Positions 4,352 through 60,497 of a stretch of 64,000 bases of DNA are shown here, in pieces. A program made the translations under genes and the position numbers. The stretch covers positions 17,973 through 81,972 of the forward strand of contig JBAZSZ010000001.1 in assembly GCA_041662205.1 (NCBI GenBank), written 5' to 3'. The number at the start of each line of letters is the position of its first letter. The stretch's first letter is position 1. The stretch comes from Minisyncoccota bacterium (lineage in GTDB: Bacteria > Patescibacteriota > Minisyncoccia > Phycocordibacterales > UBA9973). The notes beneath the pieces were generated by a model. That model searched no databases. It was not told the DNA's origin and saw nothing but the letters and a program-made list of their open reading frames with translations.

Positions 4352-4394
4352 CCTACACCAGGAGAAGGGGATTTCCCCTTCTCCTGGTGTAGGG
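4352..4394 (+). terminator. intrinsic terminator-like hairpin after pilT with a perfect 19-bp stem
   Basis: CCTACACCAGGAGAAGGGG-attt-CCCCTTCTCCTGGTGTAGG, a perfect inverted repeat, GC-rich in an AT-rich background. It lies between the pilT stop and the pilC start. Confidence 0.6.
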
Positions 4395-6218: not shown

Positions 6219-6240
6219 TTTTGACTTAGTATAATTTTAC

Positions 6241-6280
6241 AAAAACCACTCCGACCTAGATCGGAGTGGTTTTTGTTTTT
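6241..6280 (+). terminator. rho-independent terminator between the two pilin genes
   Basis: AACCACTCCGA-cctaga-TCGGAGTGGTT followed by TTTTGTTTTT. Confidence 0.75.
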
Positions 6281-9817: not shown

Positions 9818-11962
<2,145 letters not shown>

Positions 11963-14223: not shown

Positions 14224-14246
14224 AAAGACAACTTGATAAATTCACA

Positions 14247-14278
14247 ACAAAACCACTCAATTGAGTGGTTTTGTTGTT
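14247..14278 (+). terminator. rho-independent terminator
   Basis: AAAACCACTCAATTGAGTGGTTTT followed by GTTGTT. Confidence 0.7.
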
Positions 14279-14428: not shown

Positions 14429-16618
14429 ATGAAGAAAATACAAATAGGTTTATTTTTTTTGATTGTGTTTGTTTGCGGAATCTTTGGTTTAGCAAAAAGT
14501 TCTTTAGCCGCGACTTATTATGCATCACCAGCTGGTAGTGGTGCAAGTTGTGCCAACACTACACCATGTGCTCTTACTTCTGGAGTGAGCAAGCTAGTGG
14601 CTGGAGATACACTTTTTCTTAAAGACGGAACTTATAACAGTGGTATCACTGTTGGGTCTTCTGGTACGGCCAGCAATCCAATAACCATAAAAGCGGAAAA
14701 TGATGGAATGGCTATTGTGGATGGGCAGGGACAAAAGGAACCATTGGTGATTATTGGAAAGAGTTACATTAATGTAGAAGGTATTGTTTTTCAAAATGCG
14801 GTTTATGATGTTATTAAAGTCAGTGGAGGATCATCTCATATTAATTTACGACGACTCTCGGCGTATAATGCCGGCAATGGTAATTATCATCTAGTTTTAG
14901 TTTGGAATTCTAGTTATGTTTTAGTAGAAGACAGCGTAGCATCACAGACTAGTGGTTCAAACAAGTCCGGCCGATATTGTTTTATTTCACATGCCGGTGC
15001 TAATCACAATACTTTTAGGCGTAATTACTGTGATTATTTTAGTCACACTGGCGGCGGCGGTCCTTGTTCTGCAGCAGTTGATTATGGTGGTAGCTATGAT
15101 TTATGGGAAAACAATGTTTTTGATGTTTCTAAAATGCCAGCTGGATGCAGTAATGTATCTTACCAATTCGCAATTTTTGGTGAAGGACTTTACAATGACA
15201 CTTCGCATAATAAATGGTATGGTAATGTCGCTATTGGTGGACCAAATACTGAAAAGGCAGTTTTAGGGGAAACTGATGGATCAGCGCACTCAGTAAAGAA
15301 TTGGGAATTTTATGATAATGTGTTTCTCAACGCAAAAGAGGGAGTTGTAAATATTGGAGCAGCCGATGGTGCTGGTTGGATTTTTAAAAACAATACAGTA
15401 GCTAACATGTCTCAAGCAGAAGGCCTGTGGTCACTGGGGTCTGGTGCTACGATTACTGCTGGGAATAATTCTTTTTTTTCTAGTGCAACAGGGGTAAGGG
15501 TTGGGAACAATGGTTCTCTTTCTAGTCGTTATAATAATTTTTCTTCTATTGCCACACTTTATAGTGGGACTATTAGCGACAAGACTGGTGATAAAACTTT
15601 GTCGGCTGGTTACAATACTGCAACTTATGGTAAGGGTGCTTATTTAATGATTCCATTATCTCTAAATGGTCAAGGGGAAAACGGAAACAATATTGGTGCG
15701 GAAGTGCTTTTTCAATATATAAATGGACAAAAAACAAATATACCTCTTTGGCCGTGGCCGATGGAAGATCGGATCAAGAATGAAATATCTGGGAGTTCAG
15801 TTACCTATGAATCTGGAGGTGGTCTTTGGAAAACTCTAAATGGAGCTTACTCAACACCAACGCCAATACCCACTCCAATCTTTACTCCTACGCCCACTCC
15901 AACACCTGCTCCAGTTCCAACTACGAACCCTCAAGTTACAGTCAACGCTACACAGGTCGCTCCCGGAACAACAGTCACTGTTAAAGCGAGTGGAGGAAAT
16001 AGTGGTGCCAAGGAATGGGTGGCTCTCTACTTGGCTTCTAATCCGGATTCCGCCTATAGTGTGAATCAGAATTGGAAATATTTAAATGGATTACAAACAT
16101 CACCGTCTGCTGGCTTGAGTTCAGCTACGCTTCAATTTACTATGCCAATCACTCCGGGTGTCTATAATTTCAGATACTTTCCGGAAGTTGGTTTTGAAAC
16201 ACGCTTAGCAATCAGTCCGAATGTTGTTGTAGTCGTTCCAACCCCAACCCCAACACCAACCCCAACTCCAACACCTATCCCAATCTCTACCCCTGCGCCT
16301 ACACCCACTCCAGCACTTATTCCCACACCTATCCCAATTCCTACCCCTGCGCCTACTCCTACCCCAATTCTAAAACCATACTTTTTTTATCGAAATCTTT
16401 ATTTAAACATGAAAGGAGAAGATATTAAAGAACTTCAGAAATTCCTCAATACTCATCAATTTATCATTTCAAATTCTGGAATTGGTTCGCCTGGTAATGA
16501 ATCTATTTTTTTTGGTGCAAAGACAAAAAAAGCTCTTGCAAGATTCCAATTGTCAATAAGGCTTCCGTCCACTGGTTTCTTTGGACCGATGACAAGAGAG
16601 TATATAAATAAAAGGTAG
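14429..16618 (+). CDS. secreted right-handed beta-helix (pectate-lyase-fold) protein with Pro/Thr linkers and a C-terminal peptidoglycan-binding domain
   Basis: Signal peptide, then [20 protein letters not shown]...[17 protein letters not shown] typical of parallel beta-helix proteins. [19 protein letters not shown] linkers. The C-terminal region [12 protein letters not shown]...[12 protein letters not shown]...GFFGPMT matches a PG_binding_1 fold. Confidence 0.7.
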
Positions 16619-24840: not shown

Positions 24841-26646
24841 ATGAAAATTTCTTTTAATTGGCTAAAAAGTTATATACCTGATGCACCAGGCACAGACAAG
24901 CTTGTGGATATTTTTAATTATCATCTTTGTGAAGTTGAGAGTGTTGATAAAAAAGGGGATGACACAATATTTGATATAAATATTTTGCCAAATCGGGCGC
25001 ATGATTTACTTTCACACTTTGGTGTGGCTCGAGAGCTCGCTTCTCTTTTGGATATAAAGTTTACTGACCCAACTCTTAAATATAAAATTCCAGAGTCTAA
25101 ACCGACTGATTTAAAAATTGATGTAGAAAATGATAAATGCCGAAGATATATGGGGAGAGTTATACATAATGTGAAGGTCGAGCCTTCGCCAGAATGGGTA
25201 GTAAAACATTTAGAATCGATAGGGCAAAGAAGTATAAATAATATTGTAGATGCTACTAATATTGTGATGTATGACTGTGGTCAGCCGACACATGTTTTTG
25301 ATTTAGATAAGGTGAATGATGGGTTAGTGATAAGGATGGCAAAAGATGGAGAAGAACTTACTACTTTGGATAATAAAAAATGCAATTTAAAATCTTCTAA
25401 CTTGGTTATTGCTGATACAAAAAATGCTTTGGCCGTTGCTGGAGTAAAAGGAGGAAAAATCGCTGAAGTGGATAGTAATACTAAAAATATTATTTTAGAG
25501 GTTGCAAATTTTGATCCAACATCAGTACGTAAAACAGCTCAAGCATTGAATATTTTTACAGATTCAAAAAAACGTTTTGAGAATGACTTGTCACCCGAAC
25601 TTAGTTCTTACGCTATGCAGGAACTTTCTGCATTAATTTTGGAAATGTGCCCAAATGCTATTTTTGAAGATATAGTGGACGTGTATCCTGTAAAACAAGA
25701 GGAGAGAAAATTAAATTTTTCTATTGATAAAATTTCTAAAATTTTAGGTTTGGATGTCTCTATTGATGAGATAAAAGATGTTTTAAAAAGATATAATTTT
25801 GAATATAAAGAGAATGATGGAAAATTTGAAATTGTAGTACCACAAATGCGTTTTGATTTGGCAATTGAAGAGGATATGGCTGAAGAAATTGGCAGAGTTT
25901 TAGGTTATGACAAAGTAAAAGGACAAATACCTAAAATTAATTTTGAACCAAAACAAAATGAAATTTATTCACAAATACTCTTTGCGCGAAATAAATTATT
26001 AGAAGATGGATATTCAGAAGTGATGAATAGCAGTTTTTGTGATGTTGGAGAGGTGGAGGTTCTGGCTTCTGCTTCTGATAAGAATTTTTTAAGGACGAAT
26101 CTAATAGATGGGTTGAAAGAAAGCTTGAAATTAAATCAAGCGAATTCTCCACTTTTAGGAATAGACAAAGTCAAAATTTTTGAAATTGGAACTATTTTTA
26201 AGAAAAATGGGGAAGAAATGCACGTGGCTTATAGTGATAAGAAGGAAATTAAAGAAGTTGGTTTAGATGAATTTTGTGCAGAAATGCTGGCACAGAAAAA
26301 TTTAGTCGCTCCTTCCGCAAGCGGGGTCCCACGCGAGCAAAATTTTTCTGTGCCAGCATTTAAAATGTGGTCATTGTTTCCTTTTATTGCGCGTGATATT
26401 GCTGTGTGGGTGCCGGAGGAAATAACGAGTGAAGAAGTCGCTAAGATTATAGAGGAAAATATGGGGGAGATGGTGGTGCGAGGACCGGAGATTTTTGATG
26501 AATTTAAAAAGGATGGAAAAATTTCTTATGCTTTTAGGTTGGTTTTTCAATCTTATGAAAGGACTTTGAATGATCAAGAAGTGAACGATATTATGATTAA
26601 AATAACTGATAAAATAAAGGAAAATACTGATTGGCAAGTGAGGTAA
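24841..26646 (+). CDS. pheT: phenylalanine--tRNA ligase beta subunit, reduced form
   Basis: N-terminal MKISFNWLKSYI, B3/B4 and FDX-ACB-like C-terminus. At 601 aa it lacks the Myf tRNA-binding domain. It immediately follows pheS. Confidence 0.8.
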   Translation: MKISFNWLKSYIPDAPGTDKLVDIFNYHLCEVESVDKKGDDTIFDINILPNRAHDLLSHFGVARELASLLDIKFTDPTLKYKIPESKPTDLKIDVENDKCRRYMGRVIHNVKVEPSPEWVVKHLESIGQRSINNIVDATNIVMYDCGQPTHVFDLDKVNDGLVIRMAKDGEELTTLDNKKCNLKSSNLVIADTKNALAVAGVKGGKIAEVDSNTKNIILEVANFDPTSVRKTAQALNIFTDSKKRFENDLSPELSSYAMQELSALILEMCPNAIFEDIVDVYPVKQEERKLNFSIDKISKILGLDVSIDEIKDVLKRYNFEYKENDGKFEIVVPQMRFDLAIEEDMAEEIGRVLGYDKVKGQIPKINFEPKQNEIYSQILFARNKLLEDGYSEVMNSSFCDVGEVEVLASASDKNFLRTNLIDGLKESLKLNQANSPLLGIDKVKIFEIGTIFKKNGEEMHVAYSDKKEIKEVGLDEFCAEMLAQKNLVAPSASGVPREQNFSVPAFKMWSLFPFIARDIAVWVPEEITSEEVAKIIEENMGEMVVRGPEIFDEFKKDGKISYAFRLVFQSYERTLNDQEVNDIMIKITDKIKENTDWQVR

Positions 26647-30475: not shown

Positions 30476-30565
30476 CCTCACCCCGCCCAAAAAGTGTTTG
30501 GGCACCCCTCTCCTTATTAAGGAGAGGGGATGGGGGTGAGGTGAATTAAGGAATTCACCTCAGCA
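30476..30565 (+). other. GC-rich nested multi-hairpin region between rpmF and nusB (terminator/attenuator-like)
   Basis: Outer stem CCTCACCCC/GGGGTGAGG (30476-30484 with 30534-30542) enclosing GCCCAAA-aagtg-TTTGGGC and CCCCTCTCCTT-att-AAGGAGAGGGG, followed by GTGAATT-aagg-AATTCAC. Confidence 0.5.
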
Positions 30566-39381: not shown

Positions 39382-39750
39382 ATGCAAGAAGAAGCTGATA
39401 AGATATTTCTAGAATACGTAGTAAAGGCTCTAGTCGACAATCCAAACGATGTGAAGATTGAGCGTTCTTTAGATGAAATGGGAGTTTTGATAACTCTTAC
39501 TGTAAATCCTGCCGATATGGGTAAGATTATTGGAAGAATGGGTAATACAGCAAAAGCTATTCGTACCTTGCTTCGTATTATTGGTATGAAGAATAACGCC
39601 CGTGTAAATCTGAAGATCAATGAACCTGAGGGCTCCGTCAGGCCAGAGAGAACCGAGAGACCTGCAGGGTCTTTTGGAGGGTCCATGAGTTCTTCAGCTC
39701 CAGCCATGAAAACTGTCGATCAGGCTATGGAAGACTTGAAAGGAATATAA
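39382..39750 (+). CDS. KH-domain RNA-binding protein (UPF0109/YlqC-like)
   Basis: KH fold with GKIIGRMGNTAKAIRTLLRI. It lies between rpsP and trmD, as in the conserved rpsP-KH-rimM-trmD operon, although rimM is absent here. Confidence 0.75.
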   Translation: MQEEADKIFLEYVVKALVDNPNDVKIERSLDEMGVLITLTVNPADMGKIIGRMGNTAKAIRTLLRIIGMKNNARVNLKINEPEGSVRPERTERPAGSFGGSMSSSAPAMKTVDQAMEDLKGI

Positions 39751-39752
39751 AT

Positions 39753-39782
39753 AAAAAATCCCCTCATTGAGGGGATTTTTTG
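39753..39782 (+). terminator. rho-independent terminator
   Basis: AAAAAATCCCCTCATTGAGGGGATTTTTT. Confidence 0.75.
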
Positions 39783-51789: not shown

Positions 51790-51807
51790 TTTATAGACAT
51801 TTTTTAC

Positions 51808-51845
51808 AAAACAAAACCTAATAATTTAGGTTTTGTTTTGTTGTG
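51808..51845 (+). terminator. rho-independent terminator
   Basis: AAAACCTAATAATTTAGGTTTT followed by GTTTTGTT. Confidence 0.7.
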
Positions 51846-53900: not shown

Positions 53901-53924
53901 TTTTGAATCTATATTAACCTATTG

Positions 53925-53997
53925 AGCCGCCTCTCGGATTCGAACCGAGGACCTTCACTTTACAAAAGTGTTGCTCTACCAACTGAGCTAAGGCGGC
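53925..53997 (-). tRNA. tRNA-Thr (anticodon UGU)
   Basis: The reverse complement folds as GCCGCCT acceptor, GCTC-AGTTGGTA-GAGC D-arm, anticodon loop TTTGTAA, a 5-nt variable loop, and T-arm CTCGG-TTCGAAT-CCGAG. Length 73 nt; CCA is not encoded. Confidence 0.7.
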
Positions 53998-55982: not shown

Positions 55983-56045
55983 CCCTCCTGACCTCCCCTT
56001 GTCAGGGGAGGAAAAAATTAAGGAGTTCCCCTGACAAGGGGGATT
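55983..56045 (-). promoter_or_regulatory. structured GC-rich 5' leader of rpsB-tsf (two hairpins with alternative pairing)
   Basis: CCTCCCC-ttgtca-GGGGAGG (55992-56011) and CCCC-tgacaa-GGGG (56028-56041). An upstream CCCCTCCTGAC can alternatively pair with GTCAGGGGAGG. Confidence 0.45.
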
Positions 56046-56106
56046 TAGGGGGTTGAATGTATTCTTTTGCTAAAAGAACTTTTTTCGGGTAAGATGTCTA
56101 TTATAT

Positions 56107-59176: not shown

Positions 59177-59225
59177 AGCGTTGCGCTCAATCGACTTACA
59201 CGACGTGATTTCGCAAAATCAAATG
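59177..59225 (+). promoter_or_regulatory. copy B of the conserved start-codon-abutting module (upstream of tgt)
   Basis: gcgttGCGCtcaatcGACttaCACGACgTGATTTcgcaAAATCAaATG. Confidence 0.5.
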
Positions 59226-60497
59226 CAATTTAAAATAGAAAAAAAACTAAAGAATAGCTTAGGACGGGTGGGGGTTTTGACGACTCCACATGGAGATATT
59301 TTGACTCCGGCTTTTGTGGCGGTGGGGACCAAGGCCACTGTGAAATCCTTAAATCCAGAACAGGTGAAGGAAGCTGGTACCCAAGTAGTACTCGGAAATA
59401 CTTATCATTTATATTTACAGCCGGGGGATGAAATAGTACGAGATGCTGGTGGAATAGGGAAGTTTATGAATTGGCAAGGGCCGACGATGACTGACTCTGG
59501 CGGTTTCCAAGTATTCTCTCTTGGTGTCGCATATGGAAAAGATATCTCAAAACTTTTAAAAATTACTGATCCATCACTTTTAATTCCTGAACGTTTTGAT
59601 GATAGTGATGCACCACGTTTGGCGAAAATCGGACAAGATGGTGTTTCTTTCAAGTCTCATCTCGATGGCTCTATTCATTACATTACTCCAGAGAAATCAA
59701 TTCAGATTCAGCACAATTTAGGCGCGGATATAATTTTTGCTTTTGATGAATGCACTAGTCCGACAGAGGATTTAAAATATCAAGAAGAAGCGCTTGAGCG
59801 GACGCATCGCTGGGCGGAGAGGAGTTTGAAAGAGCATCAAAAATTGGAAAATCAGAAACAAGCTCGTTCTCAGGTCCTCGGTTCTCCGGGTCCCCAACCC
59901 CGGCCAGACCATTCACCCGAGCTTGTTTCTGATTTTCCCCAGGCTTTGTTTGGTATTGTGCAAGGTGGGCGAGATGAAAATTTACGCAAGCAATCTGCAA
60001 AATTTATTAGTAGTTTAGATTTTGATGGCTTCGGTATTGGTGGGAGTTTTGCCAAAGAGGACATGTCTACCGCGGTAAAATGGGTCAATGAAATACTGCC
60101 TGAAGAAAAACCCCGTCACTTACTCGGTATAGGCGAACCAGAAGATCTTTTTATGGGAATTGAAAATGGAGTAGATCTTTTTGATTGCGTTGCTCCGACG
60201 CGTCTTGGTAGAAATGGAACAATTTATACAAAAAAAGGAAAAATAATTATTATGAATACGAGATATAGGAATGATTTTTTGCCCATTGAAAAAGATTGTG
60301 AATGTTATACCTGCAAAAATTACACTAGGGCATACATTGCTCACCTTTTTCACGGCAAAGAAATGCTCGCCGGCACCTTGGCCTCGACTCACAATTTGTA
60401 CTTTATAGTCAACTTGGTTAAAAAAATTCGGCAATCAATTCTAGATAACAAATTTTTTGAGTTTAAGGAAGAATTTCTAAAAGAATATTTGAATTAA
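59223..60497 (+). CDS. tgt: queuine tRNA-ribosyltransferase
   Basis: LTTPHGDILTPAFVAVGT, catalytic MTDSGGFQVFS, and Zn site CECYTCKNYTRAYIAHLF. The start is taken at the ATG abutting the module, and the track ORF starts 42 nt earlier at a TTG. The gene carries a 40-45-aa GC-rich in-frame insertion. Confidence 0.85.
   Translation: MQFKIEKKLKNSLGRVGVLTTPHGDILTPAFVAVGTKATVKSLNPEQVKEAGTQVVLGNTYHLYLQPGDEIVRDAGGIGKFMNWQGPTMTDSGGFQVFSLGVAYGKDISKLLKITDPSLLIPERFDDSDAPRLAKIGQDGVSFKSHLDGSIHYITPEKSIQIQHNLGADIIFAFDECTSPTEDLKYQEEALERTHRWAERSLKEHQKLENQKQARSQVLGSPGPQPRPDHSPELVSDFPQALFGIVQGGRDENLRKQSAKFISSLDFDGFGIGGSFAKEDMSTAVKWVNEILPEEKPRHLLGIGEPEDLFMGIENGVDLFDCVAPTRLGRNGTIYTKKGKIIIMNTRYRNDFLPIEKDCECYTCKNYTRAYIAHLFHGKEMLAGTLASTHNLYFIVNLVKKIRQSILDNKFFEFKEEFLKEYLN

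Follow-up and report, generated by a model that had tools for sequence, protein, structure and literature searches.

The DNA analysed here, referred to below as the window, is a 64,000-nt stretch of contig JBAZSZ010000001.1 from a Minisyncoccota bacterium, which includes tgt, the gene of tRNA-guanine transglycosylase, with a GC-rich insert in its open reading frame (ORF). The database protein P0001, of 424 residues, is 100% identical to the Tgt of the window, and the ATG at position 59223 is likely to be the true start of the gene. The GC content of the insert peaks at 0.70 when measured over 50 nt, versus 0.345 across the 64 kb, and the peptide that a first-pass annotation of this DNA had quoted as a GC-rich, in-frame segment is indeed coded within the tgt ORF, at 59847-59942. 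The main feature of the insert, overlooked at that stage, is that it forms a hairpin, in which perfect inverted arms of 21 nt enclose a GC-rich centre of 51 nt (Table 1). As RNA, the element folds with -48.4 kcal/mol (z = -8.3). Given that it lies inside a gene and is followed by CCCCAGGC, the tgt copy does not resemble an intrinsic terminator; T runs are found at some intergenic copies elsewhere.

Table 1. Positions of the tgt element and its parts, and of the related sequences, host genes and tRNA gene in the window.
Feature	Position	Strand	Remarks
ORF of ligA, containing the second copy	9818..11962	+	E = 2e-151 to E. coli LigA (2owo)
Second copy, partly decayed, in the opposite orientation	11119..11198	-	Core 11138-11177; covariance model R1, 57 bits
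In-frame perfect palindrome in pheT (ORF 24841..26646)	26282..26361		22-nt arms; 36-nt GC-rich centre AGTCGCTCCTTCCGCAAGCGGGGTCCCACGCGAGCA
Probable third copy, a relic that has lost its apex (AGGTCTCTCGGTTCTCTCTGGCCTGAC)	39630..39668	-	Recognised by eye; ORF 39382..39750 (KH-domain protein), in the part for the C-terminal extension
tRNA-Thr(UGU)	53924..53997	-	Block 1 plus TTC recurs identically in its variable loop and 5' T-stem (53942-53954)
ORF of tgt (tRNA-guanine transglycosylase), containing the element	59181..60497	+	E = 1e-94 to the solved Tgt
Complete hairpin element, 93 nt	59846..59938	+	In frame, about 31 codons; covariance model R1, 84.4 bits
Left arm of the outer stem	59846..59866	+	Encodes ENQKQAR; 21 nt, 100% complementary to 59918-59938
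Conserved block 1, AGGTCCTCGG	59872..59881	+	GGUC pairs with GACC of block 2; tRNA-like segment
Apical hairpin CCGGG-TCCCCAAC-CCCGG	59886..59903	+	Module of genome-specific type
Conserved block 2, CCAGACCATT	59904..59913	+	Shared 10-nt block
Right arm of the outer stem	59918..59938	+	Encodes ELVSDFP

The first-pass annotation also attributed an excess of about 60 residues in Tgt to this insert, which is true only in part, as some 31 residues come from the element and the remainder has other sources. Fourteen residues of the excess are due to the upstream TTG start of the mechanically called ORF. A second insert of about 30 residues, relative to the solved Tgt, is seen at residues 102-132 of P0001 (approximately 59526-59620 of the window; AAYGKDISK...DSDAPR). 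As it is kept in all 43 aligned Tgt orthologues, this segment is a fixed, lineage-specific piece, and not a mobile element.

The lengths of 120 Tgt homologues, which are at least 78% identical, range from 395 to 473 residues, and the whole of this variation falls at one site; the site of the element is a variable loop in Tgt generally. The alignment of the orthologues, which had been proposed as a check, revealed the boundaries of the insert and the existence of close orthologues without it. Orthologues that are 84-86% identical carry empty sites, reading EHQKLGGDQ-ALFGIVQGG (P0034; locus L119) and EHKKLNTENKI-SLFGIVQGG (P0081; locus L120), and in the DNA of both loci the hairpin is absent from the tgt site, where the covariance model gives no match. 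The left arm, ENQKQA, equals the loop NTENKI of the empty site in length, and some orthologues keep only remnants of the stem. Many other types of insert are found at this site in the relatives (P0001-P0120), with peptides such as LSHGSHSNLNVVNESNIAYAEEST, SLAGSLSPSADGALPLGASACET, FLEGVSQADEPRGSAPLASGDSDPIKN and PLLMEEGVGGGD, and some are double (456-473 residues). This variety points to nested insertions or to palindromic elements of other families.

Relative to the solved Zymomonas Tgt, residues 206-239 of P0001 stand in place of chain residues 186-194, and the insert directly precedes the strand ALFGIQQG, which bears Gln203. By the standard logic of (beta/alpha)8 barrels, such a position, at the N-terminus of the strand equivalent to that of Gln203, would put the loop on the opposite side of the barrel from the active site. 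At the positions that correspond to the catalytic and zinc-binding residues of the solved enzyme, the Tgt orthologues are invariant.

The tgt hairpin is one of many. The family was sought with the pattern AGGTCCTCGG-N15-30-CCAGACCATT in reference contigs of one genome per species, and the totals are therefore lower bounds. Where the first-pass annotation had considered that a match to a tRNA might be the only other occurrence of the segment, at least 118 stretches fit the pattern, mostly in Patescibacteria; about 114 of those among the matches listed are from metagenome-assembled members of this group. Approximately 17 matches would be expected by chance over the whole collection, by a rough estimate with equal base frequencies, and the few found outside Patescibacteria, among the matches listed, have no hairpin. 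The host bins of the matches listed are assigned to Nomurabacteria, Paceibacterota, Kaiserbacteria and Adlerbacteria, as well as to 'Saccharibacteria', a label which is unreliable in the case of bin L108, given its synteny with the window and the identity of 72-92% between their proteins.

Copies missed by the exact pattern were sought with a covariance model, R1, which recovered 15 further copies from 735 kb of related loci, or about one extra copy per 50 kb, among them some with enlarged apices and a mini variant, AGGTCCTCGGAAAAAATCCCCAGACCATT. The density of the dispersed elements is about one per 30-50 kb, which suggests, when extrapolated to the genome size of this group, usually about 1 Mb or less, that each genome has tens of copies. 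No family in Rfam was matched (top scores of 11-23 bits versus gathering thresholds of 50-200), and no earlier description of such elements in bacteria of the candidate phyla radiation was found in literature searches. A search of 1.84 billion representative proteins with the 32-residue insert returned only a spurious ORF made of tandem repeats, and a 65-residue chimeric peptide used as the query gave no shared words.

All the true copies have a common architecture, which consists of an outer stem of approximately 20-27 nt per arm, with a sequence specific to each copy, followed by a short internal loop, a junction, and a variable apical hairpin. The junction comprises an invariant GGUC/GACC pairing, a CUC bulge, and a GG/CC pairing, and it is asymmetric, reading 5'-AGGUC-CUC-GG ... 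CC-A-GACC-AUU-3'. The median length of the element is 94 nt, with a range of 75-135 nt. Compensatory double changes were observed in 15 of the 21 consensus pairs, and each position of the outer stem presents all four Watson-Crick types; this compensation shows that each copy is a palindrome and is not, by itself, proof of selection on the RNA structure.

In the window itself, only two canonical copies are detected by R1, in tgt (84 bits) and in ligA (57 bits). The first-pass annotation had already reported that the two genes share sequence, and this proved correct, as the ligA insert contains, in reversed orientation, an exact CCGAGGACCT (11168-11177) and a second block, AATGGTCTGGC (11138-11148), which had not been reported. 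Residues 434-471 of LigA stand in place of residues 421-426 of 2owo, after the second of the four Cys of the zinc finger and before the third; all four Cys are present and flank the insert. The fold of the ligA copy is weak.

The probable relic in the gene of the KH-domain protein gives no match to R1. The C-terminal extension of this protein is about 40 residues long and GC-rich (39615-39690), and the relic found there resembles the ligA copy. The pheT palindrome scores only 16 bits with R1, which come from the stem alone, and its centre is not recognisable as part of the family; it occupies the exact pheT site of the canonical copies in loci L002, L047, L057, L067 and L086, and its centre may represent another apex, or one that has been heavily altered. 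The tally for the 64 kb is thus two clear copies and one or two relics.

Across the family, 79 of 117 copies are found in long stop-free frames, which are open for at least 90 nt on either side, and all of these keep the frame. Some 22 of the 117 are intergenic, often with A/T runs like those of the plain long-hairpin terminators in the genome of the window. The host ORFs cluster in pheT (seven copies, at two sites), ligA (six) and tgt (five), and further hosts, read from conserved motifs, are recJ-, uvrC-, uvrD-, gatA-, iscS-, leuS-, mnmA- and rsmA-like genes. The same site is reused within a given gene family, yet the stems, apices, frames and orientations differ. When the orientation is crossed with the codon phase, the counts are 11, 34 and 14 for the sense copies and 15, 4 and 1 for the antisense copies. 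The 42-nt core is free of stops in all six frames in 73 of the 117 copies, and its GC content is 64%, while that of the arms is 46% in the intragenic copies versus 24% in the others. These counts, together with the intact key residues of Tgt and LigA, bear out the initial proposal of a palindromic element that inserts in frame into essential genes without destroying them. In the metagenome-assembled genomes of loci L040 (3375-4942) and L047 (6461-7914), the pheT gene consists of two overlapping ORFs, with the split 150-200 nt away from the element, which could be either an assembly error or a real frameshift.

The coding context also bears on a very improbable alternative, in which the element would be an intervening sequence that is excised from the RNA by hairpin-triggered cleavage and re-ligation, leaving no peptide in the protein. 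All 79 intragenic copies are in frame and free of stops, and most of the cores are open in six frames, which would be needless if they were spliced; the lengths of the hairpins are otherwise unrestricted, and we know of no bacterial system of hairpin-triggered RNA excision. What speaks for excision is the great stability of the hairpin and the finding that, in animals, base-paired terminal repeats trigger the excision of transposons at the level of the RNA (PMC12779559).

Similarly, the variability of the site in Tgt would be expected of an ordinary, lineage-specific loop under protein selection, whose DNA matches to ligA and to a tRNA would be coincidental. Hardly any likelihood is left to such a loop, given that more than 100 unrelated loci conserve 20 nt of DNA, with three frames and both orientations represented, that the palindrome has perfect arms of 21 nt, and that it is absent from close orthologues. 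The family census, the empty sites of the orthologues, and the coding context of the copies refute it. Group II introns, inteins and CRISPR-like repeats were also considered and set aside, as their defining motifs are absent.

The comparison of related copies indicates how they change over time. The tgt copy of locus L121 has a degraded core, AGGATTCCTGG...CGTCACCATT, with a stem that is still paired, and the copies show decay through AT-biased mutation and deletion. In the tgt stem, relative to the window, two pairs have changed on both sides and one on one side in L108, while in L121 four pairs have changed on both sides and two on one side. This upkeep of the pairing fits either selection for the hairpin or the templated correction of quasi-palindromes.

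The apices follow the genome in which they are found, with a mean edit distance of 0.19 within genomes and 0.46 between them, a result reached by none of 2000 permutations, while the distances for the stems are 0.42 and 0.55, respectively. The tgt copies of the window and of L108 share their stems and have apices of different types, each like that of the other copy in its own genome, and Tgt orthologues with identical outer arms (ENQKQ...SDFPQ) carry at least five types of apex. Given these shared stems and genome-specific apices, the central module must be exchanged or homogenised independently of the stems. The stem type of ligA was found again in a different gene (locus L020), the GCCTCGCCTGATGC stem type is present in several genes and genomes, and the ligA copy of the window is a flipped version of the stem type of other ligA genes. 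The idea that the stems are inverted copies of the flanking host sequence is not supported as a general rule, since stems of one type are found in different genes.

Probably, the tgt insert is one copy of an undescribed family of hairpin repeats of Patescibacteria (Paceibacteria, Nomurabacteria, and related groups), selfish in nature and comparable to the palindromic elements of Rickettsia. The elements would be selfish, non-autonomous DNA which the ribosome reads through as loops rich in Gly, Pro and Ser, the LigA loop being formed inside the loop of the zinc finger, and selection in these gene-dense genomes would spare only the in-frame, stop-free insertions at tolerant loops. The conserved junction may be a handle for a trans-acting activity or for template switching from hairpin to hairpin. 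Such an activity would copy the central or apical module between copies, and the complementarity of the stems would be upheld by either hairpin selection or templated quasi-palindrome correction.

The ends of the element provide some information on its mobility. They were set by anchored alignment, a gapless definition being unsuitable for bulged stems, and identical 3-nt flanks, mostly TTC, were found in eight of 81 copies versus 2.5 expected (P = 0.003). In many copies (L016, L002, L030, L067, L086 and others), the left flank reads ...CTTC and the right flank TTCG or TCCG, and L016 has ACTTCGT on both sides; a short duplication of the target, a preference for certain targets, or the terminus of a subfamily could underlie these flanks.

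Several points weigh against a selfish, mobile family. There is no excess of identical flanks of 4-5 nt among the 81 copies, and hence no clear target-site duplication, and the clustered copies have only housekeeping genes beside them; neither a transposase or other gene associated with the element nor a cognate insertion sequence was found, although no systematic search for these was made. The outer stems vary from copy to copy, unlike the conserved terminal repeats of ordinary miniature inverted-repeat elements. The use of an exact 20-nt pattern to find copies makes the sampling biased. The translation of the tgt insert into peptides such as QVLGSPGPQPRPDHS and its three-dimensional position in the protein are both deduced from the sequence, as the AlphaFold2 model of Tgt, based on 43 close orthologues, has a mean pLDDT of 51, which is too poor for the placement of the loop. 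In addition, the junction is strongly conserved over hosts of 30-69% GC, and the intragenic copies are oriented 59:20 in favour of the sense strand, a bias of 3:1, and both of these could indicate a function for the host.

Such a function would make the hairpin a structured motif that benefits the host, such as a nucleoid or replication site, a site for an RNA-binding protein, a translational pause, or an mRNA stabiliser, located inside ORFs because streamlined genomes have almost no intergenic space. Besides the sense bias and the invariance of an asymmetric junction in very divergent hosts, the compensation of the stem pairs within coding sequence, the likeness of the intergenic copies to terminator hairpins with A/T-run flanks, and the specificity of the apex to the genome, as if it co-evolved with a partner, are all consistent with this. 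On the other hand, the hairpin is absent at the same sites in close relatives, the copies decay freely, and one quarter of the intragenic copies are antisense despite the asymmetry of the junction. The sites are protein loops of unrelated genes, and not defined positions of a transcript, and the correction of quasi-palindromes can account for the compensation without selection. A beneficial role for the host is thus unlikely.

The reading as selfish, in-frame DNA can be set beside the systems already known. Palindromic elements of Rickettsia were reportedly treated by Ogata et al. in 2000 (Science 290:347). They are short palindromic repeats that are found in frame in unrelated housekeeping genes (reviewed in PMC10969869). 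As in Rickettsia, many in-frame copies are found here in unrelated housekeeping genes of a small genome, where they would add a peptide at tolerated positions, some copies lie between genes, and the element has no transposase of its own. In the Rickettsia families, conservation extends over all of the 100-150 bp and includes the encoded peptide, whereas only the junction, of 10+10 nt, is conserved here, with locus-specific stems, a swapped, genome-specific apex, three frames, and both orientations. Given the difference in phylum and the GC-rich core found here, homology with RPE-1 to RPE-10 is unlikely, and the likeness would be one of kind.

Like the miniature inverted-repeat elements (Correia/NEMIS, ERIC, BOX, RUP), the family consists of small, non-coding, multi-copy inverted repeats that form hairpins, some of which are intragenic or terminators. 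In contrast with those elements, the terminal repeats differ between copies here (0.42-0.55), the conserved part is central, the signal of target duplication is weak and of only 3 nt, and a cognate insertion sequence is not known. The REP and REPIN sequences are also hairpin repeats that are homogeneous within genomes and different between them, which fits co-evolution with a single-copy enzyme that acts on hairpin DNA. The REPs are 20-40 nt long, extragenic, marked by a 5' GTAG, and present in hundreds, whereas two thirds of the copies are intragenic here, with tens per genome, and the GTAG motif is not found in the consensus of the element.

Template-switch mutagenesis at quasi-palindromes and the flipping of a hairpin loop through its own stem, as in chloroplast DNA, are mutational processes, and do not constitute an element family. 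The perfect arms, the flipped stem type of ligA, and the compensatory double changes may result from them, but a core shared by more than 100 loci is left unexplained. The tigRNA units of the TIGR-Tas systems, which occur in bacteria of the candidate phyla radiation, have palindromic stems and a central part that may hold an extra hairpin (bioRxiv 10.64898/2026.09.09.750476). These units form arrays with box C/D motifs and variable spacers beside tas genes, while the present elements, which lack box C/D and have an invariant centre, are dispersed as singletons in ORFs, and identity with the tigRNA was rejected given the absence of its defining motifs.

One other question is the relationship of the core to tRNA. 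The match of 13 nt with tRNA-Thr(UGU) that the first-pass annotation had noted is real: the 13-mer AGGTCCTCGGTTC occurs exactly at 59872-59884 on the plus strand and at 53942-53954 on the minus strand, in the tRNA gene, and it extends to 18 of 19 positions with a gap of 3 nt. In shuffling tests, a 13-mer match between the 93-nt element and the whole window has P = 0.15, and one for the GC-rich centre alone has P = 0.026; when the comparison is confined to the two tRNA genes of the window, a choice made after the fact, one in 2000 shuffles reaches this length. Block 1 is found exactly, as the variable loop and 5' T-stem, in five of the 59 tRNAs of the loci examined (Thr-UGU, Lys-UUU and a phage Pro-CGG), and AGGTCCTCGG(TTC) is a segment common among the tRNAs of the clade.

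It is conceivable, if doubtful, that the 3' half of a tRNA gene, with the variable loop and the T-arm, was the source of the conserved core, which would make the family a bacterial tRNA-derived repeat, possibly one that exploits an enzyme or recombinase that recognises tRNA. The extended identity with tRNA-Thr, the rarity of such a match in shuffles, and the exact occurrences of block 1 all favour this descent, as does a phage tRNA-Pro that fits both blocks in order. Against it, the comparison is post hoc, and eight of the 13 nt belong to the generic tRNA consensus (AGGUC, GUUC). The fold pairs GG/CC and GGUC/GACC, several apex subtypes are unable to form a T-arm, and the consensus fold of the family has neither a T-arm nor a cloverleaf. 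The similarity does not reach the anticodon arm, and the match of block 2 to the tRNA 3' end, ...CCAG-A-CCA, is at about the level of chance, by our own estimate, among tRNAs that have block 1. ARAGORN recognised only two true tRNAs in the window, and none at the element. Of the two origins suggested initially, a tRNA fragment or a palindromic mobile element, the palindromic nature holds, and the derivation from tRNA is not established.

Among viral contigs, the pattern had a single match, the phage tRNA-Pro gene that fits both blocks in order, which is not an element. In this phage-like locus (L122, 7090-8790; IMG/VR), the gene of a large serine recombinase is found directly upstream of the tRNA-Pro(CGG), whose 3' half contains the match.

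A more speculative proposal, and a somewhat less probable one than descent from tRNA, is that the junction and the apical hairpin are a new mobile cassette, possibly derived from tRNA, which would be copied between hairpins by a hairpin-recognising enzyme or by template switching, and would target or convert the tips of existing palindromes instead of transposing with fixed ends. From such a cassette would follow the locus-specific stems that match the local base composition, the genome-specific apices, and the reuse of sites in either orientation.

Other palindromes are also found in the window. Two GC-rich palindromic repeats, at 30494-30543 (CCCCTCTCCTTATTAAGGAGAGGGG...) and 55984-56052 (CCTCCCCTTGTCAGGGGA...), have close relatives in Paceibacteria loci, the former in L091 and L100 and the latter in L008, L043, L044 and L076, and one Tgt orthologue codes in frame for a sequence similar to these repeats (SPLLIKERG). 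Intergenic perfect hairpins with arms of 14-20 nt, tiny loops, and flanks of A/T runs lie at 4352-4393, 6239-6276, 14244-14277, 39753-39781 and 51806-51841, and look like the native terminators of the genome. The intergenic copies of the element elsewhere resemble terminator hairpins in which the core module has been placed in the loop. A run of CCAACCCCAAC-type repeats at 16232-16353, in the ORF 14429..16618, codes for a linker rich in Pro and Thr and is unrelated to the hairpin family.

To our knowledge, in-frame selfish DNA within proteins has so far been nearly unique to Rickettsia. An unrelated and widespread family in Patescibacteria would mean that this type of DNA recurs in reduced genomes, and the family would account for part of the unexplained length variation, or 'hypervariable loops', of the conserved proteins of these bacteria. 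Annotators and phylogeneticists should be aware that marker genes may contain such non-homologous segments, while the sites of the elements provide natural maps of insertion tolerance in Tgt, LigA, PheT, and other proteins. Finally, the combination of inherited stems with apices homogenised within each genome points to a process that exchanges sequence between hairpins, and, if the cassette that converts the tips of palindromes is real, the loops of essential proteins in the bacteria of the candidate phyla radiation would be continually rewritten.

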